Positions 5,624-30,332 of a DNA stretch of 32,883 nt are shown piece by piece (within the stretch, counting starts at the first letter, position 1; each line of letters begins with the position of its first letter). Below the pieces are notes generated by a model. The model did not search any database, was not told the DNA's origin, and saw nothing but the letters and a program-made list of their open reading frames with translations. This DNA is from a virus (taxonomy: Duplodnaviria > Heunggongvirae > Uroviricota > Caudoviricetes). The translations under genes and the position numbers were made by a program. The stretch lies in the IMG/VR virus record IMGVR_UViG_2802429220_000015. One strand, given 5' to 3'.

Positions 5624-5629
5624 GGAGAA

Positions 5630-6662: not shown

Positions 6663-6700
6663 GGCGTAAACCCGCCGGGGCTGGCTTACGCCTGAATCTG
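6663..6700 (+). repeat. Intercistronic stem-loop element, copy 2
   Basis: Exact 38-nt repeat of 5586..5623; followed by GAGGGA and the ATG at 6712. Confidence 0.8.
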
Positions 6701-7657: not shown

Positions 7658-7884
7658 ATATTGAATTTTATGACTACGGAGTCACCTCAAAAATCATTGT
7701 TACCTGCTGGTTCTGGGAGTTCCGTCGCTATTGCCGGGTTGTGGATGCGGCGTTGTTTGTGGCTCCTGAAGTGCGCCACCAGAGTGGCGGTGGCCTTTTA
7801 ATGAAAACCGTCATCACCGGTAAAACGGTCCCGATGTTACGGGCGTTTAAAGTGGCAAAACAGGAGGCTTGCAATGGTCATTGA
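7654..7884 (+). CDS. Hypothetical small protein
   Basis: 76-aa ORF; ATGA start/stop overlap with the upstream gene. Confidence 0.45.
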   Translation: MNIEFYDYGVTSKIIVTCWFWEFRRYCRVVDAALFVAPEVRHQSGGGLLMKTVITGKTVPMLRAFKVAKQEACNGH

Positions 7885-8164
7885 TAAAACGATAACGATC
7901 GATGTAGCCATGAATACAGGTCTGGCGCTTATCGGTTATGGCTATATCACTTTTATGTCATTCAGGTGGTTGATTTCTTCGTTCTTTAAGCAATGTGAAA
8001 AACGTTGCCGCAAAGACAAGCGCGTGAAGGCACTAAATGCGTTTAATGACGCTTTTGATATTGACCGTATGCAACAGGGAGACCCGGCACGCGTAATTAC
8101 CCAGGGAGATGTCGTGATTTTGGTATACCGGAGTGAAAAAAATGAACAGGAGGCGGCGCAGTGA
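7874..8164 (+). CDS. Hypothetical small membrane protein
   Basis: 96-aa ORF with one hydrophobic segment (GLALIGYGYITFMSFRWLISSFF). Confidence 0.45.
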   Translation: MVIDKTITIDVAMNTGLALIGYGYITFMSFRWLISSFFKQCEKRCRKDKRVKALNAFNDAFDIDRMQQGDPARVITQGDVVILVYRSEKNEQEAAQ

Positions 8165-8469
8165 ACCAGCAAACCAGAATAAGCGATAAGAGCCTGACCA
8201 GACTGATTGCCGATGCTGACAAAATGCTTGATATGCGCGGACCGATTGTAGACAGAGAGTGGTGGATGCTTTTACGGCAGTCCCTGGTTGAACTTCAGGA
8301 ACGCCGGAGTGCTGGAATCATTCCAGTGACGCTGAGAGTAAAGGAGCATCAGGTCAGAGAGCTGGTTAATCAGTTACGAGATGTGGCAATCAAATACCAC
8401 GGAACGCAGCAATTACGGGAGCGTATTGCAACAACAGTCATTTATTCAGAACTGGTTTCAGGGGAATAA
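8161..8469 (+). CDS. Hypothetical protein
   Basis: 102-aa ORF with GTG start overlapping the upstream stop. Confidence 0.45.
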   Translation: MNQQTRISDKSLTRLIADADKMLDMRGPIVDREWWMLLRQSLVELQERRSAGIIPVTLRVKEHQVRELVNQLRDVAIKYHGTQQLRERIATTVIYSELVSGE

Positions 8470-8723: not shown

Positions 8724-9002
8724 ATGAAGATTGAACAAATCGGAATGGCAGCCTTCCGGCAGCAGGCTGAAAGCGGTGGCGTGGATGAGTTCGTCGTGCA
8801 GAGGTTCGGTGGTGTGTATCACCTCTTCGCTGTGAATCGCCGCGCTGGTGTGTCTTATTTTCTACAGGAACGCCGTGGCGATTACAAGACGTGGCTGTCT
8901 CTTGACCGTGCCGCCGCGTTCCTGTCAGGGATTGGCGTTTCACGTTTTACCGTGCGTTTTGAGGATAACAAACATGCTGAAAAAGATGATCGGAGCCATT
9001 AA
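8724..9002 (+). CDS. Hypothetical protein
   Basis: Track ORF begins at 8688, but that ATG lies in the loop of a strong hairpin (8674..8701); the next in-frame ATG (MKIEQIG...) is used. Start is uncertain. Confidence 0.4.
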   Translation: MKIEQIGMAAFRQQAESGGVDEFVVQRFGGVYHLFAVNRRAGVSYFLQERRGDYKTWLSLDRAAAFLSGIGVSRFTVRFEDNKHAEKDDRSH

Positions 9003-9372
9003 AGCCGGTCAGGCGTATCTGGGGTGGGATGATGTCCTTTATCGCCAGACGCTGGCCCGCCTGACCGGTAAAACCAGCACCACACGCTGCAACCTCGATG
9101 AACTGCGCATCATCCGGGAATACATGCACGAACAGGGATTTCCGCGCAAAGCACCCGCCGGTAAAGGTCGCCGCCCCCGTGTTGCAATGAGCAGAAAATC
9201 AGTATTATCCAAAATTGAAGCGTTGCTGGCTGATGCCGGTCGTTCCTGGGCATATGCAGAAGGGCTGGCATCTCACATGTATAAGCAACATGTGATCGAA
9301 TGGCTGACGGATGAACAGCTTTTTGGGGTAATGGTGGCGCTGGTTAAAGATTCAAGAAGGAGAAATCAATGA
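8974..9372 (+). CDS. gemA: GemA-like (Mu gp16-like) regulatory protein
   Basis: 132-aa product from the internal ATG of track ORF 8848..9372, with GAGGA upstream; segment YLGWDDVLYRQTLARLTGKTS matches my recollection of the GemA/gp16 family; position just before mor as in Mu. Confidence 0.65.
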   Translation: MLKKMIGAIKAGQAYLGWDDVLYRQTLARLTGKTSTTRCNLDELRIIREYMHEQGFPRKAPAGKGRRPRVAMSRKSVLSKIEALLADAGRSWAYAEGLASHMYKQHVIEWLTDEQLFGVMVALVKDSRRRNQ

Positions 9373-9848
9373 TGAAAAAATGGTTGTTTTGTTTAGTAGG
9401 GGTTATTTTCTCTTGTTCTGCGTTGGCTCAGACAGAGGAACAGGCGCAAAAGGAACTGAAACGTTATCAGGATATGAAACCACAGGTTGAGCAACTTCTG
9501 AGGGAAAGCCTGAAACTCTATTATGACATGCCAGACGCTGCATCAGAATATAATAACGGTAACCCTGAAAAATGGCGTAAGGTCATAACAGGCCTGAAGG
9601 AATTCGATAAACAAATAGAGAAAATTGGCGGTAATGGCTTCGATCCTGTTTATAGTTCCTGTGTAAATATGGGGATTCAACTACAGGATTACTGGTCTAA
9701 CGTCCTCGGCAACAACAAACAGTTTCTCGAGCGTTCCAGAAGTTTGTTTATACAGGATCGCATGGATTGCTTTGATCAATTCGTCTTTGGTAAAGAACGT
9801 ATAGAGGCCAGAAAAGACCTTGCCATTGTTAATGTCTGGGATGAATAA
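9369..9848 (+). CDS. Secreted or periplasmic protein of unknown function (moron)
   Basis: 159-aa ORF with N-terminal signal peptide (MMKKWLFCLVGVIFSCSALA-QTEE); strong AGGAG RBS; markedly AT-rich compared with the rest of the window; followed by an intrinsic terminator. Confidence 0.7.
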   Translation: MMKKWLFCLVGVIFSCSALAQTEEQAQKELKRYQDMKPQVEQLLRESLKLYYDMPDAASEYNNGNPEKWRKVITGLKEFDKQIEKIGGNGFDPVYSSCVNMGIQLQDYWSNVLGNNKQFLERSRSLFIQDRMDCFDQFVFGKERIEARKDLAIVNVWDE

Positions 9849-9853
9849 ACAGG

Positions 9854-9880
9854 AACCTCCGCAAACGCGGAGGTTTTTTA
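9854..9880 (+). terminator. Rho-independent terminator
   Basis: Stem AACCTCCGC / GCGGAGGTT with AAAC loop, followed by TTTTTTA. Confidence 0.8.
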
Positions 9881-9884
9881 TGAA

Positions 9885-9915
9885 CTGTACAGGCGATCAT
9901 GTATGGCTATAATAA
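9885..9915 (+). promoter_or_regulatory. Candidate promoter for the mor-like gene
   Basis: TATAAT hexamer at about 9908..9913 with no good -35; palindrome CTGTACAG at about 9885..9892. Confidence 0.4.
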
Positions 9916-10435: not shown

Positions 10436-10714
10436 ATGACCAACTATACGGCACCAGGCGAGTATACGGCCTACTCAGAGCAGGCCCGGGATGCTGCCGG
10501 ACGCCGCTTCGCTCATATGAAAAATCTGGCCAGCCAGCTAAACCGAATGGCCGAACAACCGGATATGGTTGTTCAGGAAGAAGCGTTGCAGTGTGCCATT
10601 GCTGACATCATCGCCAGCGAAAACGAGATGCGCGCAGCGATGGAAAAGGCGAACGCCTCTGCTCCGCTTTGTAATAAACCTCTTATTACGCCGGATTCTC
10701 TTTCCCGCTTCTGA
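10436..10714 (+). CDS. Hypothetical protein
   Basis: 92-aa product from the internal ATG of track ORF 10403..10714, with AAGGAGA 6 nt upstream. Confidence 0.5.
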   Translation: MTNYTAPGEYTAYSEQARDAAGRRFAHMKNLASQLNRMAEQPDMVVQEEALQCAIADIIASENEMRAAMEKANASAPLCNKPLITPDSLSRF

Positions 10715-10897
10715 TTTAGCACCCCGCCGCGGCGGGGTGCTGAACTCCCCCAGCAGTACCCACCACACCAGACCGTTTACCCTCTCCACTCAGACCACAA
10801 GGCACCTTAAGGGATAGCGCCCGGCAAAAGTCATTCTGTGCCTTTGACCGGGTGTTATTTACGGGCCGTCAGTGGCTCAGATTTACAGGAGAAACTC

Positions 10898-11290
10898 ATG
10901 TCTGAACCCTTATCAGGCGGCGGAGCTGTGGCAGTCACCATCGGTGGTGCCAGTGTGTTTGGTCTTCTCACCAATACCGATTTTGGCGTCGTGGTGGGCG
11001 CGTTTGCCGGGGCGCTTTTTGTTGTCACGCAACAGAAAGAAATCCCGGTGTGGCGAATGGCCATCCACCTGCTCGTCGCGTTTGTGGTTGGCGTTCTGGG
11101 GGCTGGCGTGGCTGCGTCACTGATGCAGTGGCTGACCCACTACAACGACAAGCCGCTCGATGCATTGTGTGCGGTCGGTGTCTCGGCGTTATCCATCAAG
11201 ATACTGACCTTTCTTTATCAACAGGAAATTTCATCGCTGTTCGGCCTGTTTTCCAGACTGCGCGGCGGAGGGGGTGGAAATGGAAAGTAG
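10898..11290 (+). CDS. Multi-pass membrane protein, holin candidate
   Basis: 130-aa product from the internal ATG (MSEPLSGGG...) with AGGAG RBS; three or four hydrophobic helices; first gene of the lysis cluster. Confidence 0.5.
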   Translation: MSEPLSGGGAVAVTIGGASVFGLLTNTDFGVVVGAFAGALFVVTQQKEIPVWRMAIHLLVAFVVGVLGAGVAASLMQWLTHYNDKPLDALCAVGVSALSIKILTFLYQQEISSLFGLFSRLRGGGGGNGK

Positions 11291-17854: not shown

Positions 17855-18054
17855 ATGACCACAAACGCGCTGTAATCGTCTGTGGCAACATAAACGCCTC
17901 ACGGATGAGGCATTACAGCACCGCACCCCGTAAATGCTGTCAGAATCGTTTTTAAAAGGGTTTTAAAAACGGTTTTATTTCCCCTTTTATCCTTTCGCGT
18001 TATGGCTGGGTGCTGAACACCCTCCACAGTACCCCGTGTTCCCCTTCCGTCATC
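17855..18054. promoter_or_regulatory. G-I intergenic control region: phased A/T tracts plus candidate late promoter; possible strong gyrase site
   Basis: 200-bp noncoding gap. T/A tracts with about 12-bp period at 17949..17990; small hairpin GCCTCA-CGGA-TGAGGC at 17896..17911; motif GTGCTGAACACCCTC at 18010..18024. In Mu the strong gyrase site and the I-gene late promoter map to the G-I interval (established knowledge; inference for this sequence). Confidence 0.5.
18010..18024 (+). promoter_or_regulatory. Repeated 15-bp motif GTGCTGAACACCCTC, copy upstream of the protease/scaffold gene
   Basis: Exact 15-mer also present at 29930..29944; ends about 30 bp before the candidate start of gene I. 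Confidence 0.5.
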
Positions 18055-19179
18055 ATGCCGCGTATGAAACTGAACATTGCGGCGTTAAGCCTCGAAATTA
18101 CTAAAGCAACCCACAGCGAAATCCAGCTGTTTCCGGCGGGCGAGTTCAGCGCGGTGGATGGTCGCCCACATACCGATGAAGTCGAAAGCGGTAAATGGGT
18201 GCTGACCGCTGAACTGGCCGCGCAGCTTGTCGCGCAGGTGGCCGCCCGTACCACGCCTTTTGTCATTGATTACGAACATCAGACGCTGCGCGCCGTAAAC
18301 AACGGCAAGCCCGCCCCGGCGGCGGGCTGGTTCAGCCAGGTGGAATGGCGAGAAGGCGCGGGCCTGTATGCCACCGGTGTGGAGTGGACGGATAACGCGG
18401 TGGCCATGATTGCCGCCGGTGAGTACAAATTTATTTCCCCTGTTTTTGCCTACAACAAGCGCGGCGAAGTGCTGGAGCTGTTACATGCTGCGCTGACCAA
18501 TACCCCGGCGCTCGACGGTATGGACGCGGTCATGCTGGCTGCGGCCAGCCGTCTGGCGAGTCTGTCAACTGAAACGGAGAACACAACGGTGGATGAAGAA
18601 CTGTTAAACGACTTGCTGTCCAGTCTGCGCTGGATGCTTAACCTCCCGGTTACCTCAACGGCGGAAGATATCAAAAACGAGCTGCAAAAGGTCGTTGACA
18701 TGATTTCGAACGGTCAGGGAACGGCGGCGGCATCCGTCAGCCTGCTGGCCCTGCTGAATCAGAAAGACGAGCAAATCGCCAGCCTGTCAGCCAGTGCCTA
18801 TGACCCGTCAAAACACATTTCCCTTGCGGCCTTTGAAGAACTTCAGGGGCGTTATGCCGCACTGGCGCAACAGTCCGGTGAGGCCGAAGCCGGGGCACTG
18901 ATTCAGGCGGCGCTGTCTGACGGGCGACTGCTTCCGGCGCAGGAAGACTGGGCGAAAGATTACGCCAGCCGCGATATCAACGGCTTTAAGTCCTGGCTGG
19001 ATAACGCACCAAAACTTGTTGCACTCAGTCAGACCCAGACCGGCGGTAAACCACCCCAAACGCCGTCGCCTGCCCCGGCGCAGATTAAAACCGGTGATGA
19101 CATCGATGTCGATATCGCCATTTGTTCAATGATGGGCGTTGATCCAGAGGATGTCGCCCGTTACGCAGGAGACAAGTAA
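18055..19179 (+). CDS. Head protease/scaffold protein (Mu I-like)
   Basis: Large ORF after G, as in Mu; start taken at the internal ATG (MPRMKLNIAAL...) because the track start lies inside the regulatory motif; 18064 is an alternative. Confidence 0.78.
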   Translation: MPRMKLNIAALSLEITKATHSEIQLFPAGEFSAVDGRPHTDEVESGKWVLTAELAAQLVAQVAARTTPFVIDYEHQTLRAVNNGKPAPAAGWFSQVEWREGAGLYATGVEWTDNAVAMIAAGEYKFISPVFAYNKRGEVLELLHAALTNTPALDGMDAVMLAAASRLASLSTETENTTVDEELLNDLLSSLRWMLNLPVTSTAEDIKNELQKVVDMISNGQGTAAASVSLLALLNQKDEQIASLSASAYDPSKHISLAAFEELQGRYAALAQQSGEAEAGALIQAALSDGRLLPAQEDWAKDYASRDINGFKSWLDNAPKLVALSQTQTGGKPPQTPSPAPAQIKTGDDIDVDIAICSMMGVDPEDVARYAGDK

Positions 19180-19575
19180 ATGGATCGCAATACCCCCTAT
19201 CGTGACGGCGAGCTGAACCCGGTGCCGGTTGCCGCTGCGACCGAAATTTTTGGCGGCCATATGGTGGCCGTTAACGCATCCGGTTATGCCGTTCCGGCCA
19301 GTGCCACGGCCTCACAGATTACGCTGGGCGTGTCTGATGGCTGGGTGGATAACAGCACCGGCAGCGATGGCGACGCCACCGTTCTGGTGCGTTGCGGCAA
19401 AGCCTTTCTGATGGCGAACAGCACCTCAGACCCGGTCACGCAATCGCAGGTCGGCAAGGTGTGCTACGTGGAAGACAGCGTGACCGTGGCAAAAACCGAC
19501 AACAGCAGCGCCCGCCCTGTCGCCGGGAAAATAATCGGCATCGGTGACGATGGCGTCTGGGTTCATTTCAGTTAA
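19180..19575 (+). CDS. Hypothetical head-associated protein
   Basis: 131-aa Gly/Ser/Asp-rich product between protease/scaffold and major head genes; function unknown. Confidence 0.5.
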   Translation: MDRNTPYRDGELNPVPVAAATEIFGGHMVAVNASGYAVPASATASQITLGVSDGWVDNSTGSDGDATVLVRCGKAFLMANSTSDPVTQSQVGKVCYVEDSVTVAKTDNSSARPVAGKIIGIGDDGVWVHFS

Positions 19576-19585
19576 GGAGCAAAAC

Positions 19586-20494
19586 GTGATAGTCAACGTT
19601 AAAAACGTCAAACAGATTTTTATCAATCTGAAGGCCACCTTCCAGAAAGCCTTCGACCAGTCACCAACTGACTGGCAGAAGGTGGCAATGGAAGTGCCAT
19701 CAAACGGCAAGGAGAACGACTACAGCTGGTTAAGTCGTTTCCCGAAAATGCGCGAGTGGATTGGTGACAAGGTCGTTAAATCACTGGCGGCATTTAACTA
19801 CACCATCCGTAACAAGGACTGGGAAGCCACGGTTGAAGTCGATCGTAACGACATCGAGGACGACCAGATTATGGGCTATGCCCTTCAGGCGAAAGGGGCC
19901 GGACAGTCGGCGGCAGAGCTACCAGCAGATATTGTGGCGTCCCTTATCAGTAACGGTTTTACCAATCCCTGTTACGACGGCCAGCCGTTCTTTGATACCG
20001 ACCACCTGGTCGCCGGTAAATCGGTGTCCAACAAAGGCACCAAAAAACTCAAAGTTGGCTCGCTTGCCGAGGCGAAAGCCTCCTACGGTGCCGCCCGTAC
20101 ATCCATGCGCAGCCTGAAAGATGACGAAGGCGCATCCCTTAAAATTCGCCCGAATCTGCTGGTTGTGCCACCGGCGCTGGAAGATGACGCGAACTACCTG
20201 ATGACCGCCGAGAAGTTCCCGGACGGTACGCCGAACCCGTACCGCAACACCGCCGACGTGCTGGTGATGCCGGAGCTGGCGTCGGATTCTGCATGGTTCC
20301 TGTTTGACACCACCAAACCGGTGAAACCGCTGATTTATCAGCTGCGTAAAAAGCCTGTTTTTGTGGAGCAGACGGACTACAGCAGCGACAACGTGTTCGC
20401 GCGTAAGAAGTTCCTGTTTGGTGCCGAAGCGCGCTGTAACGGCGGTTACGGCTTCTGGCAGATGGCATTTGGTTCTGATGGTACGACGGAGTAA
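19586..20494 (+). CDS. Major head subunit (Mu T / gp34-like)
   Basis: Motif DWQKVAMEVPSNGKENDYSWLSRFPKMREWIGDK is typical of Mu-like major head proteins; start placed at the GTG at 19586 with AAGGAG 6 nt upstream (track ATG at 19544 is the alternative). Confidence 0.88.
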   Translation: MIVNVKNVKQIFINLKATFQKAFDQSPTDWQKVAMEVPSNGKENDYSWLSRFPKMREWIGDKVVKSLAAFNYTIRNKDWEATVEVDRNDIEDDQIMGYALQAKGAGQSAAELPADIVASLISNGFTNPCYDGQPFFDTDHLVAGKSVSNKGTKKLKVGSLAEAKASYGAARTSMRSLKDDEGASLKIRPNLLVVPPALEDDANYLMTAEKFPDGTPNPYRNTADVLVMPELASDSAWFLFDTTKPVKPLIYQLRKKPVFVEQTDYSSDNVFARKKFLFGAEARCNGGYGFWQMAFGSDGTTE

Positions 20495-20497
20495 TGC

Positions 20498-20839
20498 ATG
20501 GAAAAGGTGATTGAAATTACCGCCCGCCGTGAAGGTTTTCGCCGCTGCGGTGTGGCGCACAGTGCAACCACGAAGGCATGGCCTGCGGATGCGTTCACCC
20601 CGGAACAGCTGGCGGTGCTGAAGGCTGACCCCATGCTGATTGTGGTGGAGCGCGATAAAGCGTCCGGCCAGAACGACGCGCTCCGGGGTGATGAACTGGC
20701 CGCACAGCTTGATGCCGAGCGTCAGAAAGTCAGCGAACTGACGGCGCAACTGGAAGAAGAGCGCCAGAAAGTCAGTGAACTGACCGCACGGCTGAACGCC
20801 GCACAGAAAACACAAAAAGCGGACAAAAAGGAGAAGTAA
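20498..20839 (+). CDS. Hypothetical protein with C-terminal coiled-coil tandem repeat
   Basis: 113-aa product; two 14-aa repeats ERQKVSELTAQLEE / ERQKVSELTARLNA encoded by an imperfect 42-nt tandem DNA repeat. Confidence 0.55.
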   Translation: MEKVIEITARREGFRRCGVAHSATTKAWPADAFTPEQLAVLKADPMLIVVERDKASGQNDALRGDELAAQLDAERQKVSELTAQLEEERQKVSELTARLNAAQKTQKADKKEK

Positions 20840-20842
20840 CCC

Positions 20843-21274
20843 ATGTCTTACGCCACACCGGAACAGTTCATCAGGGCGTTCAGTGAACGCGAGGCACGCA
20901 CACTGACGGATGAAGACATGACGGGATTCATCGACGAAGAAAAGCTGGCCTCCGCGCTTGCGCGTGCCAGTGCCCAGATTGATGGCTATCTGGTGGGGCG
21001 TTACCGGACCCCGTGGCCTGACAGCCCGGGGATTCTGGTGGGTTACTGCTGCGATATCGCCCGTTATCACCTGGCGACCGATTACCGTATCTGCTCAGAA
21101 GAAATTCAGATGCGCTACCGGGACGCCATCCGCTTTCTGGAGAAAGTCGCGGCAGGACAAATCAACCTCGGACGGGATACGTCCGGCAGCGTGATCCAGT
21201 CATCGTCACAGGTGCGTATCCGCTCCGGCTCCCGTCAGTTCGGGCGTGAGTCCACGCGGGGAGGTGCATTCTGA
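20843..21274 (+). CDS. Mu gp36-like protein (DUF1320-like)
   Basis: 143-aa product; features such as AQIDGYLVGRY and CCDIARYHLA fit my recollection of the gp36 family. Confidence 0.72.
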   Translation: MSYATPEQFIRAFSEREARTLTDEDMTGFIDEEKLASALARASAQIDGYLVGRYRTPWPDSPGILVGYCCDIARYHLATDYRICSEEIQMRYRDAIRFLEKVAAGQINLGRDTSGSVIQSSSQVRIRSGSRQFGRESTRGGAF

Positions 21275-21327
21275 TTACTGAAATTGAACGGGCGCTGGTT
21301 GAGCGTCTGCGCTGTGGTCTGGGGCAT

Positions 21328-21924
21328 ATGGTGCAGGATGTCCGCACCTATGCCGGTGAACTGGATGAAGACCCGGGCCGGATTGTTCGCAGCCTTCCGG
21401 CAGCCTGGGTGACGTTCGGCGGCATCGTGAAAACCGAACGCTATTCCACGTCACGCCGGAAATACATTGCCACCGGACGCTTTGTGGTTGTGGTGGGTGA
21501 TTACAACACCCGCAGCGAACAGAGCGCCAGACAGGGAGGCACCGTCCGGGATGAAGTCGGGACAAACCTGCTGGTTGAATCCGTCCGCCGTCTGCTGACC
21601 GGTCAGGATTTGGGGCTGGAGATTGATTATTTCGAACCCGGGCGGGTCAGGACGCTGTTTAACACCGGCGTGGCAGAGCGGGCAATGTCCGTATTTGCCT
21701 GTGAGTTCGATACCCGCTGGGTGGAGCACGCGCTGGAGAACGGCAAATGGCCGGAGCGCGGCGCAGAAGCGGACCGCCTCTTCAACCGCTACCACGGCAG
21801 GCTGTCAGACCCTGACCCGGAACTGCTGAACCTTGGCATCCTGTACCAGATGCAGGACAGCGACGCTGAAATATCAGGGCTGACTGAATTAAGAGAGCAA
21901 CAGCATGAACAAAATGAAGGTTAA
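21328..21924 (+). CDS. Mu gp37-like protein (DUF1834-like)
   Basis: Track ORF from the first in-frame ATG; the in-frame upstream sequence (ITEIERALVERLRCGLGH) looks like the conserved N-terminus of this family, so the true start may be at about 21274 (see findings). Confidence 0.7.
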   Translation: MVQDVRTYAGELDEDPGRIVRSLPAAWVTFGGIVKTERYSTSRRKYIATGRFVVVVGDYNTRSEQSARQGGTVRDEVGTNLLVESVRRLLTGQDLGLEIDYFEPGRVRTLFNTGVAERAMSVFACEFDTRWVEHALENGKWPERGAEADRLFNRYHGRLSDPDPELLNLGILYQMQDSDAEISGLTELREQQHEQNEG

Positions 21925-22147
21925 GGCGGCTCCCGGGATGAAGTTCCCGATGGAGGATAACGCCCGGAAATACATCACCACGGAAGCAGTGACCGTTGAG
22001 AACACCGCTTATTACCGGCGCGCCGTTCAGGACGGTGACCTGATTCTGGTGAAGGATGAGCCTGAAACCACCGTGACGGCTGAACAGGACGCCGTGCAGG
22101 TAAAAGCGAAGGCGAAGAGAGAGAAACAGGTGGATTCCGATGAGTGA
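21905..22147 (+). CDS. Mu gp38-like protein (DUF2635-like)
   Basis: 80-aa product MNKMKVKAAPGMKFPMEDNARKYITTEAVTVENTAYYRRAVQDGDLILV; small gene immediately before the sheath gene. Confidence 0.6.
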   Translation: MNKMKVKAAPGMKFPMEDNARKYITTEAVTVENTAYYRRAVQDGDLILVKDEPETTVTAEQDAVQVKAKAKREKQVDSDE

Positions 22148-23561
22148 AATTCAGTTTGACACCATTTCGGGCGGCATCCGTAAGCCCGGTGTGCATTTTG
22201 AGTTCAATACCCGGCTGGCCGTTAACACGCTGCCGGGTAACGAACAGCGTGTTCTGGTGATTGGCCCGATGCTGTCAGGCGGCACCGCCACGCCCCTGAA
22301 TGCGGTTTCCGTGTATTCCGAAGACGAAGCGGATTTGTATTTCGGGGCCGGTTCGCTGGCCGCTGCAATGGCGCGCGCGGCTATTAATGCCAACAGCTAT
22401 CTGCAACTGGATGTTATCGGTATTGCAGACAGTGGCGCAGGAAAGGCAGCAACCGGCGCGGTTACCGTCAGCGGTACGGCAATCAGCAGCGGCACACTGT
22501 CGGTATGGGTTGCTGGTGAGCAGGTCACGGTGGATGTGGAAACCGGCGATGAACCGTCGAAAATCATTCCTGCACTGGTGGAGGCAATGACGCAGACGCC
22601 ATCGCTTCTGGTCACGGGGGAATACAAATCAGAAGCCTCTCAGCTGACGGTGACCACCCGGACCAAAGGAGCCTGGGGGAATGACATTACCCTGTCAGCA
22701 TCCACCACGGCAGGTGGTCTGACCGTGAGCGCCACGCCGATGGCGAACGGTGAAATGGACCCGGATATTCAGCCCGCACTGGATGCGGTCTTTGCCGCCG
22801 GTCACAACATTCTGATTTGTCCGTTCAGTACCACGCCAGCCCTTGCCGCCCTGAAGCAGCATCTGGAGAAAACCGGGAACGCGATGGAACAGCGCGGCGC
22901 GATTGGCTGTGCGGGCTGGACGGGCAGTCTCGGAAACGGGATCACCCTGGCAGCCGGTGTGAACAGCGGGCGCGTGTCCGTCCCCTGGTATCGCGGCTCC
23001 GTGAAGCTGCCAGCGGTACTGGCTGCCATCTACGGCGCTGTGATGGCGGGCGAGGAAGACCCGGCGCGTCCGCTGAACTCGCTGGCGCTGTCCGGGCTGG
23101 ATGTGGTCGCCATGTCACAGCGTGAAAGCCGTAACGAGCAGGAAAACGCCCTGCATAACGGCCTGACGCCGGTTGAGGTTGGCCCGGGTAACACGGTGCA
23201 GATTGTGCGTGCGGTCAGTACGTACACGGTTAACGCACAGGGCGTGACTGACGTCTCGTTACTGGATATCACGTCCATCAGAACGCTGGACTACACCCGC
23301 AAGGCGTGCCGCGAACGCATCAGCCTTCGCTTCCCGCGCGAAAAACTCAGCACCCGCACTATCGCAAAAGTGGAAAGCGAACTGTATGACGTGCTGATTA
23401 AGCTGGAGGAAGCGGAAATTCTGGAGAACGTGGAAGCGAACAAGGCAAAGCTGCGCGTTCAGCGAAACGGGAAAGATGCAAACCGTCTCGACTGCGTGGT
23501 TCCGGCGGATGTGGTTAACGGCCTGCATGTGTTTGCCGGTCGCATCGACATGATTTTGTAA
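22140..23561 (+). CDS. Tail sheath protein (Mu L-like)
   Basis: 473-aa product in the conserved position before the tube gene. Confidence 0.88.
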   Translation: MSEIQFDTISGGIRKPGVHFEFNTRLAVNTLPGNEQRVLVIGPMLSGGTATPLNAVSVYSEDEADLYFGAGSLAAAMARAAINANSYLQLDVIGIADSGAGKAATGAVTVSGTAISSGTLSVWVAGEQVTVDVETGDEPSKIIPALVEAMTQTPSLLVTGEYKSEASQLTVTTRTKGAWGNDITLSASTTAGGLTVSATPMANGEMDPDIQPALDAVFAAGHNILICPFSTTPALAALKQHLEKTGNAMEQRGAIGCAGWTGSLGNGITLAAGVNSGRVSVPWYRGSVKLPAVLAAIYGAVMAGEEDPARPLNSLALSGLDVVAMSQRESRNEQENALHNGLTPVEVGPGNTVQIVRAVSTYTVNAQGVTDVSLLDITSIRTLDYTRKACRERISLRFPREKLSTRTIAKVESELYDVLIKLEEAEILENVEANKAKLRVQRNGKDANRLDCVVPADVVNGLHVFAGRIDMIL

Positions 23562-23573
23562 GGAGCGCGGTAA

Positions 23574-23948
23574 ATGTCCATTAAAGAATATGTCGGCTCG
23601 ATTGTGCTGGAGGTGGACAGCCAGGAAATCGAGATCACCGACTTCGATGTTCAGATCAACACCGGGCGAAAGCTGGTCAAGACCATGAACAAAACTGGCA
23701 GGGCAAAAGGCTTTGCCCGTGGCATTGCCACTTACGATATTTCAGTTTCGGCGGTTATCCCTGATACCAACGAGCCGGACTGGGAAAATCTGGAAGGTGT
23801 GAAAATTTCAATTTATCCGCTCAGCAACAGCGGCAAGCGCACCTCCTATCTGGACTGCTTCACTGTTGAAGTGGGTGAGAAATACACCGTCGACAGTGAA
23901 GCGAAAATTGATATCAAAATGGCTGCACTCAGGAAGGTGACAGGATGA
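23574..23948 (+). CDS. Tail tube protein (Mu M-like)
   Basis: 124-aa product between sheath and chaperone genes. Confidence 0.82.
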   Translation: MSIKEYVGSIVLEVDSQEIEITDFDVQINTGRKLVKTMNKTGRAKGFARGIATYDISVSAVIPDTNEPDWENLEGVKISIYPLSNSGKRTSYLDCFTVEVGEKYTVDSEAKIDIKMAALRKVTG

Positions 23949-24328
23949 CTTTGATTAATACACAGACCGGCGAACTGTCTGATGGCGTGGTATTTAACGG
24001 CACCGTTCATAAAAACTTTGAGCTGCGTCTGCCGGTCATGCGTGATAACGGGCAGGCACTGGAAGAAACCGAAGAACGCTTTCAGACGGTGGACGGCTTC
24101 GCGGCAGATTATTACTACCGTTGCGCAGTGATGGCGGCAACGCTGGTCCGTCTTGGGGATATCCCGCAGGAAGAACTGACGGCGGATCTGTTGCACGACA
24201 ACATGACGCCGGACGATTTTAATATTCTGCTGGCATCACGCAACGTCCTGAAGGTAAAGCGGAACGGCGGGAATCCCGGCTCGCCGGACTCCGGCTCGCA
24301 GTCCTTATCCTCGGGCGCTACGGAATAA
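23945..24328 (+). CDS. Tail assembly chaperone candidate
   Basis: 127-aa acidic product between tube and tape measure genes, the conserved position for tail assembly chaperones. Confidence 0.6.
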   Translation: MTLINTQTGELSDGVVFNGTVHKNFELRLPVMRDNGQALEETEERFQTVDGFAADYYYRCAVMAATLVRLGDIPQEELTADLLHDNMTPDDFNILLASRNVLKVKRNGGNPGSPDSGSQSLSSGATE

Positions 24329-24342
24329 CCGAAGAGCAAATC

Positions 24343-24501
24343 ATGACCATGAGCCGTCCCGAGCTGGACGGCTGGCTTGCCGCCGTTGACAGGCTGAACG
24401 GCGGCGGTTCAGGAAGAAAGGACACCTCACAGACCACCCGCCAGTCATTTAAATCCCTCAGAAAGAAACGCAGAAAAGGTAAGCAGAAAAATGGCCGGTA
24501 A
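24343..24501 (+). CDS. Small basic ORF in the -1 frame; possible frameshift extension of the chaperone
   Basis: 52-codon ORF not in the track (under 60 aa); the same reading frame is open from about 24223, overlapping the chaperone 3' end; ends inside the tape measure gene start. Confidence 0.3.
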   Translation: MTMSRPELDGWLAAVDRLNGGGSGRKDTSQTTRQSFKSLRKKRRKGKQKNGR

Positions 24502-26731
24502 TTTCAAAGTTGGCATGACCCTGACTGCGAAGGACGAAGCCTCGCAGGTTCTGGAAAAGGGACAAAAACAGGTTATCAAAGCCACCGAAGGTGTAACAAA
24601 GGCAACACGGAAGGCAGGCGCAGAGCAGAAGCGTACCGAGCAGGAAAGCATTAACAGCACGAAAAAGGCCGCAAAAGAGATACAGCGTGCCGCCCGTGCC
24701 CGGGAAACGCTCGGTATTCGTGCAGAACGTGAAATCCGGCGTGAAATTTATCAGACAGTTGCCAGCTATAACCGTCTGGCCCGCGCCGGTTTTGAATCTG
24801 CGCAGGAGCAGGAGCGCGCCATGCAGGCCGCCCGGGAAAAAGCCCGGGCACTCAAGCGTGAACTGGATGGCGTCACTCAGGCTCAGATGAAGATGGCGAA
24901 AACACCTGTTATCCCGGAGCCGGGGCGTTTTGCACGTGCGGCAGCATTTGGCGGGAATGCCGTGACAATAGGTGGTGGTATCGCGGCAGGTGCTGCCATT
25001 ATGGCGCAGCCGGTCAAAAAGCAGATGAGCTACGAACGCCAGCTGGCAATGATGGCCAATACCGCCTTCAGTGATGGCGGACTGGAGGGGCGCAAAGCCG
25101 GTCTTGAGCAGATGAAAAGCAGCATCCGTAACGCGGTGACCTATGGTGGCGGCACAAAAGAGGATGCAGCCGAAACACTGGATGCCCTGCTGAAAGATGG
25201 CGGTATTTCATTTGACACAGCCAGCAAGTGGCTGCCTGAACTGATGAAATACGCCACGGCTTCCGGTGCATCAGCGACAGACCTGGCTAATGTGATGCTT
25301 AAGGGCAAAAAGACTTTTGGATTCAGGGATGAAGATATTTCCACCGTTCTGAATATGGCAATTGCAGCGGGCAAAGAAGGCAGCTTTGAACTGAGCGACA
25401 TGGCCCGATGGTTATCTTCGCAACTGGGGTCAGCGTCAGCTGCGGGGATGAAAGGCAAAGATGATTTCGTCAAGATTCTGGCACTGAATGAAGCTGCTGC
25501 CATCACGGCGGGAAGCAGTGATGAGGCCGGAAATAACGTGTTTAACCTGCTGGCTAAACTGACCAGCCACGATATTGAAACAGCGGCAAAGAGCATTGAT
25601 TACAACGGTAAAGGAATTGATTTTTCCGGTACGCTGGTTCAGGCGCGCGAGCATGGGCTTGATCCGATAGATGCGCTGTCCAGCCTGATAGACAAAATCG
25701 TTGCCAGCGATAAACGCTTTCAGGAGTTGCAAAAGAAACTGGCCTCCGCCCGGGATAAAGGTGAGCAGACGGCTGTTTACGATTCGATGGCAAAACTCCT
25801 TGAAGGCTTTGGTGTCGGGAAACTGGTTGCAGACCAACAGGCGTTAAAAGCGTTGCTGGCTTACCGTAACAACCCTGAATACCGCAAGAAGGTTGAAGAT
25901 GCGGTTAATCAGCAGCGCACCCTGCCGGAAGGTCAGCGCGCGGGTGATGTGGATTTTAACTTCATATCCGGCCTCAATGACTTTAAAACCGAACAGGCTA
26001 AAAACACGCTTGAATTTTCACAAATGGATGGTGTGAAAAAACTGGCTGATGCATCCGGGACTGTGGCCGATGCCATAAGCTGGGCGGGTGAAAAATTTCC
26101 GGGGCTGACCACAGCAGTGGTGACAGCTACCACAGCCATTAAAGCGATGACAGCAGCGGCCGTCACGTTTGCGGGGCTGAAACTTATTACCGGTAATCCA
26201 GTGTCCGGAGGAGCAGATAAGCCCGATGATACTGGGGATACTGCATCCAAAGTTAAAGATATCAGTGAAGTCGCTTCCGGCAATCAGGGACGTCTGGGAA
26301 AAATAATGGGCGCTGCCGGAAAAATTGCAACCATTTACGCAGGCTATGAGGCCGCAGAAGAACTTTATGGGGCTGTTGTTGGCGATACCATCAAGAACTT
26401 TACAGATAATCATGGTTTGTTTTTTGCAGACGATGGCTCCTTGTTCTTTACCCGTGAAGGAATGCTTAAACGGGATAATGAGCTGAAAGCCGCAGCTGAT
26501 GCTCTGCCATCACCGGAGCAGGTGAACACAGCCGCCGGAAACACAACGCCTGAATCAGCATCAAAGCAACCCGGACGCATCACCCAGCCGGAATACCTCA
26601 CGCACTGGGGACCACCTGCCAGCCCCATTAATTTCACCACACAACTGGTGCTCGATGGTCAGGTCGTGGCGGAGGCAGTGAACAAATACAACCTTCAGGA
26701 CGGCAACAGAGGCACGGGAGGAACTTACTGA
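24491..26731 (+). CDS. Tail tape measure protein
   Basis: 746-aa Ala/Gly-rich product with long helical regions; position after the chaperone. Confidence 0.9.
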   Translation: MAGNFKVGMTLTAKDEASQVLEKGQKQVIKATEGVTKATRKAGAEQKRTEQESINSTKKAAKEIQRAARARETLGIRAEREIRREIYQTVASYNRLARAGFESAQEQERAMQAAREKARALKRELDGVTQAQMKMAKTPVIPEPGRFARAAAFGGNAVTIGGGIAAGAAIMAQPVKKQMSYERQLAMMANTAFSDGGLEGRKAGLEQMKSSIRNAVTYGGGTKEDAAETLDALLKDGGISFDTASKWLPELMKYATASGASATDLANVMLKGKKTFGFRDEDISTVLNMAIAAGKEGSFELSDMARWLSSQLGSASAAGMKGKDDFVKILALNEAAAITAGSSDEAGNNVFNLLAKLTSHDIETAAKSIDYNGKGIDFSGTLVQAREHGLDPIDALSSLIDKIVASDKRFQELQKKLASARDKGEQTAVYDSMAKLLEGFGVGKLVADQQALKALLAYRNNPEYRKKVEDAVNQQRTLPEGQRAGDVDFNFISGLNDFKTEQAKNTLEFSQMDGVKKLADASGTVADAISWAGEKFPGLTTAVVTATTAIKAMTAAAVTFAGLKLITGNPVSGGADKPDDTGDTASKVKDISEVASGNQGRLGKIMGAAGKIATIYAGYEAAEELYGAVVGDTIKNFTDNHGLFFADDGSLFFTREGMLKRDNELKAAADALPSPEQVNTAAGNTTPESASKQPGRITQPEYLTHWGPPASPINFTTQLVLDGQVVAEAVNKYNLQDGNRGTGGTY

Positions 26732-28080
26732 TGGGCTGGGCTGAAAACCTGCAAAACGCCTCCTTTCGTGGCGTGCAGTTTGATGTACTGAACACGGATG
26801 AACAAATCAGCCGCGACCATGCGGTCTATGAATACCCGTTTGTTGACGGGGCGGATTTGCACGACCTCGGACGCAAGGCGCGACCGTTCCGCATGACGGC
26901 GTTCCTGTGGGGGGAGTATTACGAATATAAACTTGAAAAGCTGATCGCCGCCCTGGATAAAGGCGGTGATGGTGAGCTGATTCACCCGGTTTACGGCTCC
27001 GTACCGTCGGTGATTGTGACCGGCTACAGCATCCGCCATGACGCAGAAAGCCCGGACAGCTGCACCATCGACATGAGTTTTCTGGAGAACCGCACCGGCA
27101 GCGCGTTGTTCAGCACCCCGTTACCGGAGCTGTTTGCACAGAAGTTATTTGAAGAACTGGATAAGTTACTGGCACAGTTAAGCGAATTATTTGACGCTGT
27201 TACGGCCCCTTTAAAGACCATTAACAGCGTGATTAAAAAAATCCAGACGGTGCGTGCCACGCTGGTGAATACCCTGCTGACATTCAAAAGCGATTTTCTC
27301 TCATCCATCGACAATATGATGTCACTGGCCAGCGAACCCGGAAAGTTCATCGGCGGGCTGGCAGAGGTGCTGGAAATCCACACGTCAGATGTCGGGCACG
27401 CGGTGCCGGTGCTGGAGCGTACTGATTCCGCCACCACGACCGGACTGACCGGGGAAGACAGCGTCGCCAGTTCTGCGACAGTGATGACCTGCTGGAATGA
27501 GGTGATGGCAGATATGGATGAGCTGGTCGCACTGCCGGTCGCACTGGTCAGCGGTGATAAAACGCCGTCTGTGGCACTTCCGCCGGATGCGTCCGTGGAA
27601 GACGTGCAGGACGTGAAAGCGGCATATGCGGTTCTGGCAGCCTCAGAGCTGGCCAGCGTGGCGACGGCGATACTGTCAGATGAGGCCCAGTCAGAGCAGC
27701 TTATACCGGCGGATATCGGGCGACTGGTCGGGGATGTGCGCACCCGCTTACAGGCAGCCATCACGCTGTTCCGTGAACGCTATGAAGGCGAACGCGAACG
27801 GATAACCGAAACCGCATCACCGCTGGGGCTGATGTACCCGGAAATCATTCAGAGCATGAAGAACGTGGCGGCATCCGTGCAGGATGTCGGCCTGCTGGTT
27901 CTGTCTCGCCGCCCACCGCTGACGCAGAAACAGGTGCAGGCGGACAGCTGTCTGCTGTTGCTGGCGTGGCAGTGGTACGGCGATTACAGCCGTGCGGCAG
28001 AGCTGCAACGTCTGAACCCGCAGCTGCGTGACCCGAACAACATAACCGCCGGGATGGTGATTAATGCCTATGCAAAATAA
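26731..28080 (+). CDS. DNA circularisation protein (Mu N-like)
   Basis: 449-aa product following the tape measure gene; N-terminal region matches my recollection of Mu N. Confidence 0.82.
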   Translation: MGWAENLQNASFRGVQFDVLNTDEQISRDHAVYEYPFVDGADLHDLGRKARPFRMTAFLWGEYYEYKLEKLIAALDKGGDGELIHPVYGSVPSVIVTGYSIRHDAESPDSCTIDMSFLENRTGSALFSTPLPELFAQKLFEELDKLLAQLSELFDAVTAPLKTINSVIKKIQTVRATLVNTLLTFKSDFLSSIDNMMSLASEPGKFIGGLAEVLEIHTSDVGHAVPVLERTDSATTTGLTGEDSVASSATVMTCWNEVMADMDELVALPVALVSGDKTPSVALPPDASVEDVQDVKAAYAVLAASELASVATAILSDEAQSEQLIPADIGRLVGDVRTRLQAAITLFRERYEGERERITETASPLGLMYPEIIQSMKNVAASVQDVGLLVLSRRPPLTQKQVQADSCLLLLAWQWYGDYSRAAELQRLNPQLRDPNNITAGMVINAYAK

Positions 28081-29275
28081 CGACGACAAAATCAGCCTGG
28101 TCATTGCCGGAAGGTCGCATTCTGACTGGAGCAGTTATCGTATTGACAGCGATTTCCTGAAAGCCGCCGACGGCTGGCAGCTTCAGCTGGGACTGCCTGA
28201 AAAGGTGTTCCCGGCGGATATCGTCCGGGGTGCGCCGGTCCGTTTGCAGGTGGGAGACGAGACGGTCCTCAGTGGTCGCGTGGACAGCGTGCGCCGCAGT
28301 GTATCCCGTCAGAGCTGCACGCTGACCCTGTCCGGGCGTGATGATGCCGCCATCCTGGTGGACTGTGCCGCACCGGTGTTCAGCGCCAACCAGCTGACAC
28401 TGGACGAGGTCATCGACAGGATAGTCAGACCGCTGGGGATACAGCGCATCCGTATTCAGGCGTCCGGTGTGTCACGTAATGACAAGGTCGTTATAGAGCC
28501 GGGGATGCGTGCGTGGGATGCACTGGCTAAAGCTGCCGCCGGTCGCGGCTTATGGCCGTGGTTTGAGCCTGACGGGACGCTGGTTGTGGGTGGCCCTGAC
28601 TACACCACCACGCCGGTGGACACGCTGATTATGAAGCTGGACGGCACCGGGAACAACGTGATGGAGCTGGACGATACCCGGTCCATTAACGGCTGTTTCT
28701 CCGAGCTGACGGTGCTGGCCCAGAGCCACGCCCGCCGCGCAGACAGCAAGAAACAACTGGCCGTGGTGCCGCTGGATATCTGGAACAAGGACGGCAGCGT
28801 GCGCACATTATCCGGGCAGGACAGCGGTAATACGGACAATGGTCAGACAGGCATTCATAACATGAAAGCCGTGGCCACCGACCCCACCGTGGATTATTAC
28901 CGCCCGCAGATAATCACCCAGGGCGACACCAGTAACATGGAGCAGGTGAACTGGCGCGCCAAAAAAATGATGAGTGATGCCCGCCTGTCGGGGCTGAATA
29001 TCGTCGCACTGGTTGCAGGTTATCGCACGACGGACGGTGTCCTGTGGCAGCCCGGCCAGCGTGTGCGAATTGTCAGCGAACCCCACGGCATTGATTCCAT
29101 CTTTTTCCTGATGGGGCGTGAGTTCAGCGGAGGCCGGAGCGGGCAGACAACCCGGCTCCGCTTTAAGGAGGATGGCGTGTGGATACCAGATGCCTTCCCG
29201 CGCGAGAAGAAACGCCATCACCGCAGGGGCAAAAAGAAAAAAGAGGTCGCCATTGTTAAGGTCTGGGAGAAATGA
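28064..29275 (+). CDS. Tail/baseplate hub protein (Mu P-like, P2 gpD-like)
   Basis: 403-aa product; position and size. Confidence 0.82.
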   Translation: MPMQNNDDKISLVIAGRSHSDWSSYRIDSDFLKAADGWQLQLGLPEKVFPADIVRGAPVRLQVGDETVLSGRVDSVRRSVSRQSCTLTLSGRDDAAILVDCAAPVFSANQLTLDEVIDRIVRPLGIQRIRIQASGVSRNDKVVIEPGMRAWDALAKAAAGRGLWPWFEPDGTLVVGGPDYTTTPVDTLIMKLDGTGNNVMELDDTRSINGCFSELTVLAQSHARRADSKKQLAVVPLDIWNKDGSVRTLSGQDSGNTDNGQTGIHNMKAVATDPTVDYYRPQIITQGDTSNMEQVNWRAKKMMSDARLSGLNIVALVAGYRTTDGVLWQPGQRVRIVSEPHGIDSIFFLMGREFSGGRSGQTTRLRFKEDGVWIPDAFPREKKRHHRRGKKKKEVAIVKVWEK

Positions 29276-29928
29276 TGTGGGACAAGGTTAATCAGCGCAT
29301 ACAGCAGGCACTGGCCGCCGTTCGCCAGGCATTCAGGGTGGTGACCGGTACGGTGGACAGTTCGACCAAAGTACAGTTGCTTCAGCTGAACGGGCTGGCA
29401 GGCGAACAGCTGGACGGTGCGGAGTATTTTCAACATTACGGCCTCACCACATCCCCGCCGCCCGGCTCGATGGGTATTGCCGTTCCGCTGAATGGTAATA
29501 CCTCCCATACCGTCGTCGTGGCCACAGAGCACGGCGCATATCGCCTGACGGAACTGAAACCCGGGGAAGTGGCCCTGTATACCGACGAAGGCGCGAAAAT
29601 TGTGCTGAAGCGCGGACGTGTGATTGAAACGGAGTGTGATATTTACCGGGTGAAATGTAATTCGTTTGAAGTTGAAGCAAAGGACAGCGCTGGTTTTATT
29701 ACTCCCCAACTTACCGCAAGTGAGCAATTAATTGCTGAAGGGAAAATATCCGGTAATGGGGGTATGGCCATTAAAGGCGGCAAAGGAAAATATACTGCCA
29801 CCTTTGAAGGCAATATCAACCACACAAGCGGTGTGATTACCTCCGTTGACGTCACCATTAATGGCGTTAAAATCGGAACGCACAAACACCCGACCCCACA
29901 CGGCATGTCTGACACGCCGGTTAATTAA
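29272..29928 (+). CDS. Baseplate central spike/assembly protein (Mu gp45-like, P2 gpV-like)
   Basis: 218-aa product; ATGA overlap with the P gene. Confidence 0.78.
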   Translation: MMWDKVNQRIQQALAAVRQAFRVVTGTVDSSTKVQLLQLNGLAGEQLDGAEYFQHYGLTTSPPPGSMGIAVPLNGNTSHTVVVATEHGAYRLTELKPGEVALYTDEGAKIVLKRGRVIETECDIYRVKCNSFEVEAKDSAGFITPQLTASEQLIAEGKISGNGGMAIKGGKGKYTATFEGNINHTSGVITSVDVTINGVKIGTHKHPTPHGMSDTPVN

Positions 29929-29929
29929 G

Positions 29930-29944
29930 TGCTGAACACCCTCA
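29930..29944 (+). promoter_or_regulatory. Repeated 15-bp motif GTGCTGAACACCCTC, copy upstream of the gp46-like gene
   Basis: Exact copy of 18010..18024, in the 53-bp gap between the gp45-like and gp46-like genes, 37 bp before the ATG. Confidence 0.5.
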
Positions 29945-29981
29945 CCTGATTCTGACCTGTCCATGCTGCCAGACTGGCGGC

Positions 29982-30332
29982 ATGGACCAGACGATTTCAC
30001 CTGCAACCGGCGACTACGAACGCCGCCGGATTTATACACTCCATAACGCGGTTTATCTGCGACTGGCGACACCGCTTGGCAGTTACTGGGCGGATGCGTC
30101 GCTGGGGTCACGCCTGCACGAACTGAAGCGGGAAAAAGACGTTTCCCGTGTTCACAGGCTGGCGGCGCAGTATGCCAGCCAGGCACTTCAGCCCCTGCTT
30201 GATGACGGGCGGGCAAAATCCATTACCGTTGACACGAAAGCGGGCCAGCGAGGCTGGCTGTTGCTGTTAATCACCGTCACGGATAACGCGGGCACACCGC
30301 AGACGTTTGAACACCCTGTGAGGATTATGTAA
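29982..30332 (+). CDS. Baseplate protein (Mu gp46-like)
   Basis: 116-aa product; position in the baseplate gene block. Confidence 0.7.
   Translation: MDQTISPATGDYERRRIYTLHNAVYLRLATPLGSYWADASLGSRLHELKREKDVSRVHRLAAQYASQALQPLLDDGRAKSITVDTKAGQRGWLLLLITVTDNAGTPQTFEHPVRIM

Follow-up and report, generated by a model that had tools for sequence, protein, structure and literature searches.

A repeated sequence box as candidate late-activator site in a Mu-like prophage of Escherichia coli

How does a Mu-like prophage mark the gene blocks that are to be expressed late, and which protein would read these marks? The question is raised by a virus record of 32,883 nucleotides (IMGVR_UViG_2802429220_000015; this whole stretch of DNA is termed the window hereafter), in which a first-pass annotation had noticed an exact 15-bp motif shared by two regions upstream of late genes, with a related copy before the lysis genes, and had proposed that the motif is the binding site of the phage's late activator. 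Our analysis supports this proposal. The motif belongs to a longer box that very probably serves as the upstream activator element of three sigma-70-dependent late promoters, with the Mor/C-type protein of the phage as its most likely binder—an interpretation built on three copies placed before late blocks, their recurrence in relatives, a -10 hexamer at a fixed distance, a geometry shared with Mu and an adjacent Mor/C gene.

Three copies of the box and their conservation

The E. coli prophage in the window is transposable and Mu-like; it shares 99.5% identity with a prophage in the Shiga toxin-producing E. coli (STEC) strain 08-00022, and related DNA was found in 118 complete E. coli genomes. 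The whole prophage comprises 35.7 kb and 54 genes, and its late part, with gene identities drawn from Pfam, PHROG and PGAP, contains, in this order, the holin and lysis genes, terminase, portal, F, G, the protease gene I (18064-19179), the major head protein gene, tail genes and—at the late end—gp44/P, gp45 and gp46 (29982-30332). The first copy of the 15-mer lies upstream of the protease/scaffold gene I exactly where it had been annotated, and a second exact copy does precede gp46, shifted by one base with respect to the position originally given (29930-29944); the related copy upstream of the lysis cluster, which matches at 13/15 positions and overlaps a perfect palindrome, was likewise recovered (Table 1). 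A motif search of the full prophage, as the first-pass annotation had suggested, returned these three copies only, with no further good copy. All three are intergenic, share one orientation and lie at the same distance from a -10-like hexamer, occupying 3/5 of the intergenic gaps of at least 40 nt after the activator gene (those before the lysis genes, I and gp46). Two details of the original description had to be revised. The motif had been placed 30-37 bp from the start codon; measured from the first base of the box, the distance is 53-54 nt, with 38 nt between box end and start codon for gp46 (ATG 29982) and 39 nt for I (ATG 18064). A gap of 30 nt is obtained for I only with the out-of-register ATG at 18055, ATG 18064 being the PGAP start and the one that fits the relatives. 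Furthermore, the box extends over ~25 bp rather than 15 bp, spanning motif positions -5 to +21, with C at -1, C17, T18 and A20 conserved outside the 14-mer used for searching (position 1 is the C of CACTGAAC, equivalent to the T of TGCTGAAC, at 10738, 18011 and 29930).

Could the two identical 15-mers be a chance repeat without any function? Taken by itself, the exact direct repeat is not significant: base shuffles of the window contained, on average, 0.55 repeated 15-mers, other 15-16-mers are repeated inside coding sequence, and a search allowing three mismatches gave 3 matches against 0.93 expected, a number reached in 4/100 shuffles. Set against these figures, intergenic DNA makes up only 4.15% of the prophage, so that only ~0.001 pairs of repeated 15-mers would be expected to lie wholly between genes, and the common placement, orientation and hexamer distance of the three copies add to the case. 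Above all, distant relatives keep the box at orthologous positions, despite flanking DNA that cannot be aligned. These comparative data refute a chance origin, to which we give next to no credence; the box is real by context and conservation, although the repeat alone is within chance.

Neither megablast nor blastn of the region against the phage collection produced a match, and E. coli relatives—at least 95% identical across the G-I spacer—offered no useful footprint; loci of relatives were collected via the capsid protein instead. The box was found at the same three positions in prophages of Trabulsiella, Kosakonia, Pectobacterium, Symbiopectobacterium, Serratia and Halothiobacillus, with the word CACTGAACCCCTTC where the window has TGCTGAACACCCTC. 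The flanking proteins of these relatives are 50-60% identical, and the intergenic DNA is otherwise unalignable. The box of the relatives is near-identical (CCACTGAACCCCTTC(A/C)nCTgA), and the window word differs from theirs at four positions. In relatives, the homologous positions lack the exact 9-mer GTGCTGAAC, and alignments show the variant CACTGAAC there; the motif, whose absence from these positions the first-pass annotation had named as evidence against its own proposal, is present there in altered form. Wherever a locus extends far enough, each phage carries three copies (before the lysis genes, I and gp46), and the box-bearing relatives come from at least eight genera. In addition, IMG/VR was scanned with both words and with TGCTGAACCCCTTC, which added many further Mu-like loci; hits of a TGCTGAACACCCTC...TACGAT class (L204, L207, L211, L215 and others) were left out as being of doubtful membership. 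At these IMG/VR loci, the exact TGCTGAACACCCTC recurs after a gene for a GH108-type endolysin, with TACGAT occupying positions 41-46; the phage concerned is a non-Mu one and has HNH and terminase genes.

With different words, this design was also recognized in three named phages: three sites with CACTGAAGCCCnTC (core CACTGAAGCCC) in Klebsiella phage ST405-OXA48phi1.1, three sites with GTGTGGAAG-N3-TTCC in Haemophilus phage SuMu, and CGTTGAACCCCTTC-N26-CACCAT-TGGCGGC-ATG (word CGTTGAAC) before the protease gene of Pseudomonas phage MP22, a member of the D3112 group that has a second site after its activator gene. In MP22 (NC_009818, locus L443, ~10600-10655 in locus coordinates), the box, the -10 and the ATG lie upstream of the annotated protease start, the ATG by 127 nt. 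The longer N-terminus obtained from this ATG, MEKNRLLVAIAACSFQLPQLEDGSAWIQVTPAGEF, aligns with protease I of the window, and the MP22 protease is probably annotated 127 nt too short. The anti-CRISPR locus of this phage (AcrF3) is located just upstream of the protease promoter.

Table 1. Positions of the boxes, predicted promoter elements and associated features in the window
Feature	Position	Strand	Remarks
Lysis box	10733-10758	+	Core 10737-10751, GTGCTGAACTCCCCC; relatives have a homologous third site before the lysis genes
I box	18006-18031	+	Core 18010-18024, GTGCTGAACACCCTC; relatives have CACTGAACCCCTTC at the homologous position
gp46 box	29925-29950	+	Core 29929-29943; starts one base after the gp45 stop codon; homologous position in relatives
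Lysis -10, TACCCT	10778-10783	+	Predicted; motif positions 41-46
I -10, CATCAT	18051-18056	+	Predicted; motif positions 41-46
gp46 -10, CAGACT	29970-29975	+	Predicted; motif positions 41-46; compare Mu Plys TAGACT and Mu PI CAAACT
I start codon, ATG	18064-18066	+	8 nt past the end of the -10; coincides with the PGAP start in NZ_AP042598
gp46 start codon, ATG	29982-29984	+	7 nt after the last base of the -10 (6 nt between); PGAP start
gp46 inverted repeat, GTCCATGCTGCCAG-a-CTGGCGGCATGGAC	29959-29987	+	Encloses the -10; ends in the first two gp46 codons
Perfect 24-nt palindrome, AGCACCCCGCCGCGGCGGGGTGCT	10718-10741	+	Directly after the stop of ORF 10436-10714; overlaps the first 5 nt of the lysis box
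Mor/C-family activator gene, 155 aa	9943-10410	+	Candidate box binder

Promoter geometry and the putative activator

Beyond the box itself, the most telling feature is a hexamer at motif positions 41-46, 26 bp past the box, which nearly always reads nAnnnT (family examples include TATTCT, CATTCT, AATACT, TAATCT and TAGTAT). We compared 76 non-redundant sites in Mu-like loci with 139 chance hits in non-Mu loci as a control: A at position 42 occurs in 69/76 sites versus 42/139 chance hits, T at position 46 in 69/76 versus 48/139, and both together in 68/76 versus 13/139 (Fisher p = 3e-33). When the doubtful class was excluded, both bases were present at 62/70 sites, or at 67/70 (against 25/139 in the control) if a shift of 1 nt was allowed. 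The bases equivalent to A42 and T46 are the best conserved of the sigma-70 -10 element, and the neighbouring positions are variable. The first-pass annotation had likened these sites to a weak promoter, a description that holds insofar as a -10 hexamer is present; there is, however, no -35, a classical -35/-10 sigma-70 promoter being absent from all three sites of the window, and at I and gp46 the -10 is positioned for a start at the ATG itself. The core of the box forms an imperfect dyad, TGAA-N4-TTCA (TGAA-CCCC-TTCA in the family and TGA-N6-TCA in the window), centred 31.5 bp ahead of the -10 (counted to its first base). With an assumed start 7 nt after the -10, the box would span ~-52 to -33, with the dyad centred at -43.5.

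Other promoter arrangements were considered for the same regions. Placing the box at the 5' end of late transcripts (with a start after TTATGG at 18000 or TTAATT at 29921, and the T-rich TTTTATTTCCCC as activator site) was dropped, as the upstream stretch is not conserved together with the box, the conserved hexamer lies downstream of it, and the TTTAAA repeats match the Mu strong gyrase site region. A direct repeat in the G-I spacer, TTTTAAAAGGGTTTTAAAAACGG (17950-17972), kept by relatives in the form GTTTAAAA-N-GGTTTAAAA, resembles that same Mu region (cut site 17879/80, GATTTTTTAAAACGCGCCACGGGATTTTTAAACCGG); in all likelihood, this repeat is where gyrase acts centrally in the phage rather than a part of the promoter. 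In its 3' end, ~60 nt ahead of the gp46 box, gp45 contains TTGACG-16-TAAAAT (29846-29873), which resembles the sigma-70 consensus at 10/12 positions, the total number of such consensus-like sites in the region being at chance level.

The gene order of the prophage follows that of Mu, the early part comprising the repressor, ner, transposase A, B, the semi-essential region and GemA (8848-9372), after which come ORF 9369-9848 (encoding an uncharacterised 159-aa product), the Mor/C-family gene and a small ORF (10436-10714). The 155-aa product of the Mor/C-family gene matches the Pfam family PF08765 Mor with 28.3 bits (cut-off 24.9) and PHROG 836, 'late transcriptional activator', with E = 4e-42; it contains the linker FLGGxxFYIPR common to Mu C and Mor, and its helix-turn-helix region aligns weakly. 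We infer that this protein, the product of the only recognisable Mor/C gene in the window, binds the box. Consistently, tblastn located Mor/C homologues at 54 places in the collected loci, usually just upstream of the first box. The activator gene of the window is itself preceded by an intrinsic terminator, GGAACCTCCGCAAACGCGGAGGTTTTTT, and by a perfect TATAAT (9908-9913) with a poor -35; the late-promoter box is absent from this upstream region (9853-9913).

Some relatives carry two Mor/C paralogues, in the order Mor-type gene, a CACTGAACCCCTTC promoter ~1 kb further on, C-type gene and TGCTGAAC-type boxes before the lysis genes and I. The C-type paralogue is 44-55% identical to the protein of the window. 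This arrangement looks like a Mu-style Mor-to-C cascade, in which the window protein would be grouped with the TG-type boxes. In five IMG/VR loci (L100, L104, L109, L140 and L171), the box precedes the second paralogue, and a hairpin with a T-run follows directly after the -10 (TGaAATACT); the predicted start lies inside the terminator-like 5' arm, which would render the terminator invisible to its own promoter.

A different factor might also recognise the box as a DNA site—the product of ORF 9369-9848, a host regulator or an alternative sigma factor using GAAC as its -35. The uncharacterised ORF sits between gemA and the activator gene, where Mu has mor, the assignment of the Mor/C protein as binder rests on sequence comparison, and the GAAC of the box resembles the -35 core of sigma-E. 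However, Mor/C homologues occur throughout the box-bearing relatives, while ORF 9369-9848 has no homologue in their loci save one weak match. No conservation is seen 16-17 bp after GAAC, the place of a -10 of the extracytoplasmic function (ECF) type, whereas a conserved sigma-70-type hexamer is found 33 bp after it; upon inspection of spacing and conservation, the box was rejected as a sigma-54 or sigma-E element. The length of the box (~25 bp), its dyad-like character and its position at the place of Mu C binding argue in the same direction, and we regard another factor as improbable. In the mechanism that we favour, the Mor/C-family protein would bind the ~25-bp box and recruit or activate host RNA polymerase at a -10-only promoter (TACCCT, CATCAT or CAGACT), switching on the lysis/packaging block, the head block from I and the baseplate/fibre block from gp46.

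Start codons, inverted repeats and read-through transcription

Sigma-70 polymerase normally starts transcription 7-8 nt past the end of the -10. The ATG of I is at motif position 54 and that of gp46 at position 53, and one of these two positions holds an ATG in 37/76 family sites, compared with 5/139 controls. Owing to this fixed spacing of the box, the I and gp46 mRNAs are predicted to begin at the start codon, without a leader. Among the 54 prophage genes, the Shine-Dalgarno pairing of I is the weakest (+1.2 kcal/mol) and that of gp46 the third weakest (-1.5 kcal/mol). On balance, we incline towards the view that both transcripts would start at the A of the ATG or within 1-2 nt of it, yielding leaderless mRNAs. 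To our knowledge, leaderless first genes of activator-dependent late structural operons have not been described for Mu-like phages, and searches of the accessible literature for the box words and for leaderless late transcripts in such phages retrieved nothing relevant. The lysis promoter is laid out differently: its predicted start at ~10790 would give a leader of ~108 nt to the holin ATG at 10898, and this leader is predicted to be structured (z = -3.2 for 10784-10900). A CUCC at 10784-10787, between the lysis -10 and the predicted start, pairs with the holin Shine-Dalgarno GGAG and could hide the holin ribosome site in read-through transcripts only.

A second feature distinguishes these start regions. 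At most I- and gp46-type sites, the -10 is located in the loop of a G+C-rich inverted repeat, the 3' arm of which ends at the ATG or includes it; at lysis-type sites, a hairpin directly follows the hexamer and extends up to the ATG or takes in the Shine-Dalgarno sequence. The arm sequences vary between phages and site types (e.g., TGTCGCC/GGCGACA, CGCCGA/TCGGCG, GTGGTGCTG/CAGCACCAT and CCATGCTGCC/GGCGGCATGG), and the best stems have a mean of 8.7 bp versus 6.66 +/- 0.23 bp when arms were swapped between sites, with 0/200 swaps reaching the observed value. In an alignment of gp46-type sites from 16 relatives, 85.8% of the cells are paired, compared with 28-52% after sliding the partner by 1-3 columns, and compensatory change is present in only three pairs. 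Folded as RNA, the gp46 repeat of the window reaches -26.2 kcal/mol (z = -5.8). With 100 nt of read-through context, none of the 54 genes has a more fully paired AUG than gp46 (unpaired probability 0.00), and the I AUG ranks fourth (0.05, i.e., 95% paired); the median over 37 sites is 0.056, against 0.52 for prophage genes (p = 2e-7).

The predicted start lies inside or after the stem at all site types, which means that transcripts from the late promoter could not form the stem, while read-through transcripts could. Transcripts entering from upstream would then fold the inverted repeat and bury the AUG, and those initiated at the late promoter would lack the 5' arm. This role of the inverted repeats appears plausible from the folding analysis, though we would rate it at somewhat less than an even chance; alternatively, the repeats may act as a terminator, a pause site or an RNA-stability element. 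The perfect palindrome before the lysis box also folds stably as RNA (-25.6 kcal/mol, z = -5.8), with no T-run after it (10718-10741); as a hairpin, it may end upstream transcripts or shield the late promoter from them.

The proximity of box, hairpin and start codon allows for yet another explanation, in which the box is an element of the transcribed 5' leader that, for example, enhances translation, binds a protein or directs the processing of late mRNAs; transcription would then start upstream of the box, and the hairpin would form part of the functional leader. Such an element would account for the constant distance between the box and the I and gp46 start codons, for a gp45-gp46 box that begins right after the stop codon and for covarying hairpins that abut the ATG. 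It would also fit locus L010, a Halothiobacillus metagenome-assembled genome (MAG), in which the box stays with the start of I despite a 1-kb ORF that separates it from the upstream intergenic elements. (This accessory-gene-like ORF, at ~7370-8330, lies between gyrase-site-like repeats and the I box.) An RNA element, however, leaves the near-invariant A42 and T46, the signature of a -10, unexplained within an otherwise variable stretch. Nor does it agree with the lysis-type sites, where the distance from box to start codon varies from ~75 to 160 nt and that from box to hexamer is fixed, or with a dyad-to-hexamer distance equal to that of the C-dependent promoters of Mu; moreover, no Rfam 15 match at gathering thresholds was obtained anywhere in the window. 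We deem an RNA element very improbable, slightly more so than recognition of the box by another DNA-binding factor.

Several observations weigh against a Mor/C-activated late promoter as set out here, or against parts of it. The box word is distinct from that of Mu, meaning that the specificity of the activator is inferred and not transferred from the known system. The activator protein is itself distant from Mu C and Mor: BLASTP aligns mainly the linker, and the best hit in the Protein Data Bank (PDB) has E = 0.4. No clean protein-to-word code emerges either. In phages with two Mor/C paralogues, CA-type words are found mostly before the second paralogue and TG-type words at late genes, but a simple code in which CA-type boxes belong to the Mor-type and TG-type boxes to the C-type paralogue is broken by locus L420, which has TG-type words at both levels. 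The lysis copy of the window is weak, combining a 13/15 match with a poor -10 (TACCCT) and a distance of 160 nt from the holin start, and folding 46 nt at the I site of the window yields no significant hairpin (z = -0.8). As to leaderless starts in particular, gp46 of Klebsiella phage ST405-OXA48phi1.1 would begin with GTG at +1, and gene I of SuMu has an 18-nt leader.

If extended to the whole group, including the Pseudomonas phages D3112, MP22 and JBD that serve as anti-CRISPR models, the combined arrangement would have the first late head and baseplate genes leaderless and the -10 in the loop of an inverted repeat, with read-through transcripts AUG-buried or terminated and only activator-driven transcripts translatable. 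We advance this generalisation as a doubtful one. If true, a phage that integrates randomly into host operons would carry its own insulator, and the arrangement suggests how such a prophage could keep its lysis and structural proteins silent despite incoming transcription. The practical yield is more immediate: the signature of box, 26 bp and nAnnnT describes candidate late promoters for widespread Mu-like prophages of Enterobacterales and beyond, with related versions in Klebsiella, Haemophilus and Pseudomonas phages. It also gives an uncharacterised Mor/C branch a directly testable target and flags start codons that may be misplaced where annotation pipelines look for a ribosome-binding site, as for the MP22 protease. 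In E. coli strain OkiPb01701 (NZ_AP042598, locus L440), the prophage interrupts the flagellar gene fliH, parts of which lie at 188-535 and 37426-37773, and is therefore exposed to transcription of the host fli operon. Elsewhere in the window, in the early/semi-essential region, an exact 38-bp direct repeat, GGCGTAAACCCGCCGGGGCTGGCTTACGCCTGAATCTG, was observed at 5587-5624 and 6663-6700.

Comparison with IS10/IS50, lambda and Mu

Fold-back inhibition protects IS10 and IS50 against outside transcription. The layout considered here would be alike in that a 5' arm lies upstream of the element's own transcript start (predicted in our case) and a 3' arm covers the translation start, such that only read-through transcripts would fold; it is seen at the gp46 site of the window and in most relatives, with a weak stem at the I site of the window. 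In contrast to IS10/IS50, the arms flank the -10, and some copies with a T-run resemble terminators in which the transcript start falls inside the stem, insulation being proposed here by analogy. A second parallel is lambda cI transcribed from PRM, which is leaderless: there as here, the start codon ATG coincides with the +1 (predicted in the present case) and a Shine-Dalgarno sequence is missing. Leaderless status is a prediction for I and gp46, and it would concern the first genes of activator-dependent late structural operons.

The closest counterpart is Mu itself. Its C site is a 16-bp imperfect dyad centred at -43.5, with the stretch from -52 to -34 required and a -10 unaccompanied by a -35 (PMC2582627), and Mor and C bind just upstream of the -35 (bioRxiv 10.1101/2025.05.02.651988). 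The four late promoters that depend on C have CCATAACCCC in common in the annotated Mu genome (Pmom: TTATGCCCCAATAA), with TAAGAT, TAGACT and CAAACT as -10s. The promoters proposed here would employ the same activator family, with the activator gene just upstream of the lysis promoter; they precede the lysis, head (I) and baseplate blocks, and have a -10 without a -35. The C-rich centre of the imperfect dyad precedes the -10 by 31.5 bp, exactly as at Mu Pmom, the value of -43.5 in our case assuming a start 7 nt after the -10. The Mor-activated Pm promoter of Mu, located before C, has its parallel in the two-paralogue relatives with a box promoter before the second paralogue, unlike the single Mor/C gene of the window, which has a terminator and a TATAAT promoter lacking the box in front of it.

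The differences from the late promoters of Mu begin with the word itself, TGCTGAACACCCTC or CACTGAACCCCTTC here versus CCATAACCCC or TTAT-N6-ATAA in Mu; CTGAAC boxes are absent from the four late promoters of Mu, and the Mu word is absent from the window. The third promoter lies between gp45 and gp46 rather than inside gene N upstream of P as in Mu, and there is no mom promoter. Mu PI provides a ~26-nt leader with a Shine-Dalgarno sequence, whereas the ATG in the window follows 7-8 nt after the -10 with almost no Shine-Dalgarno, and the -10 is commonly found in the loop of an inverted repeat. Taken together, the architecture appears to be that of a Mu C-type promoter, to which this phage group would add its own recognition word, late mRNAs predicted to be leaderless and, possibly, an insulation from read-through transcription.

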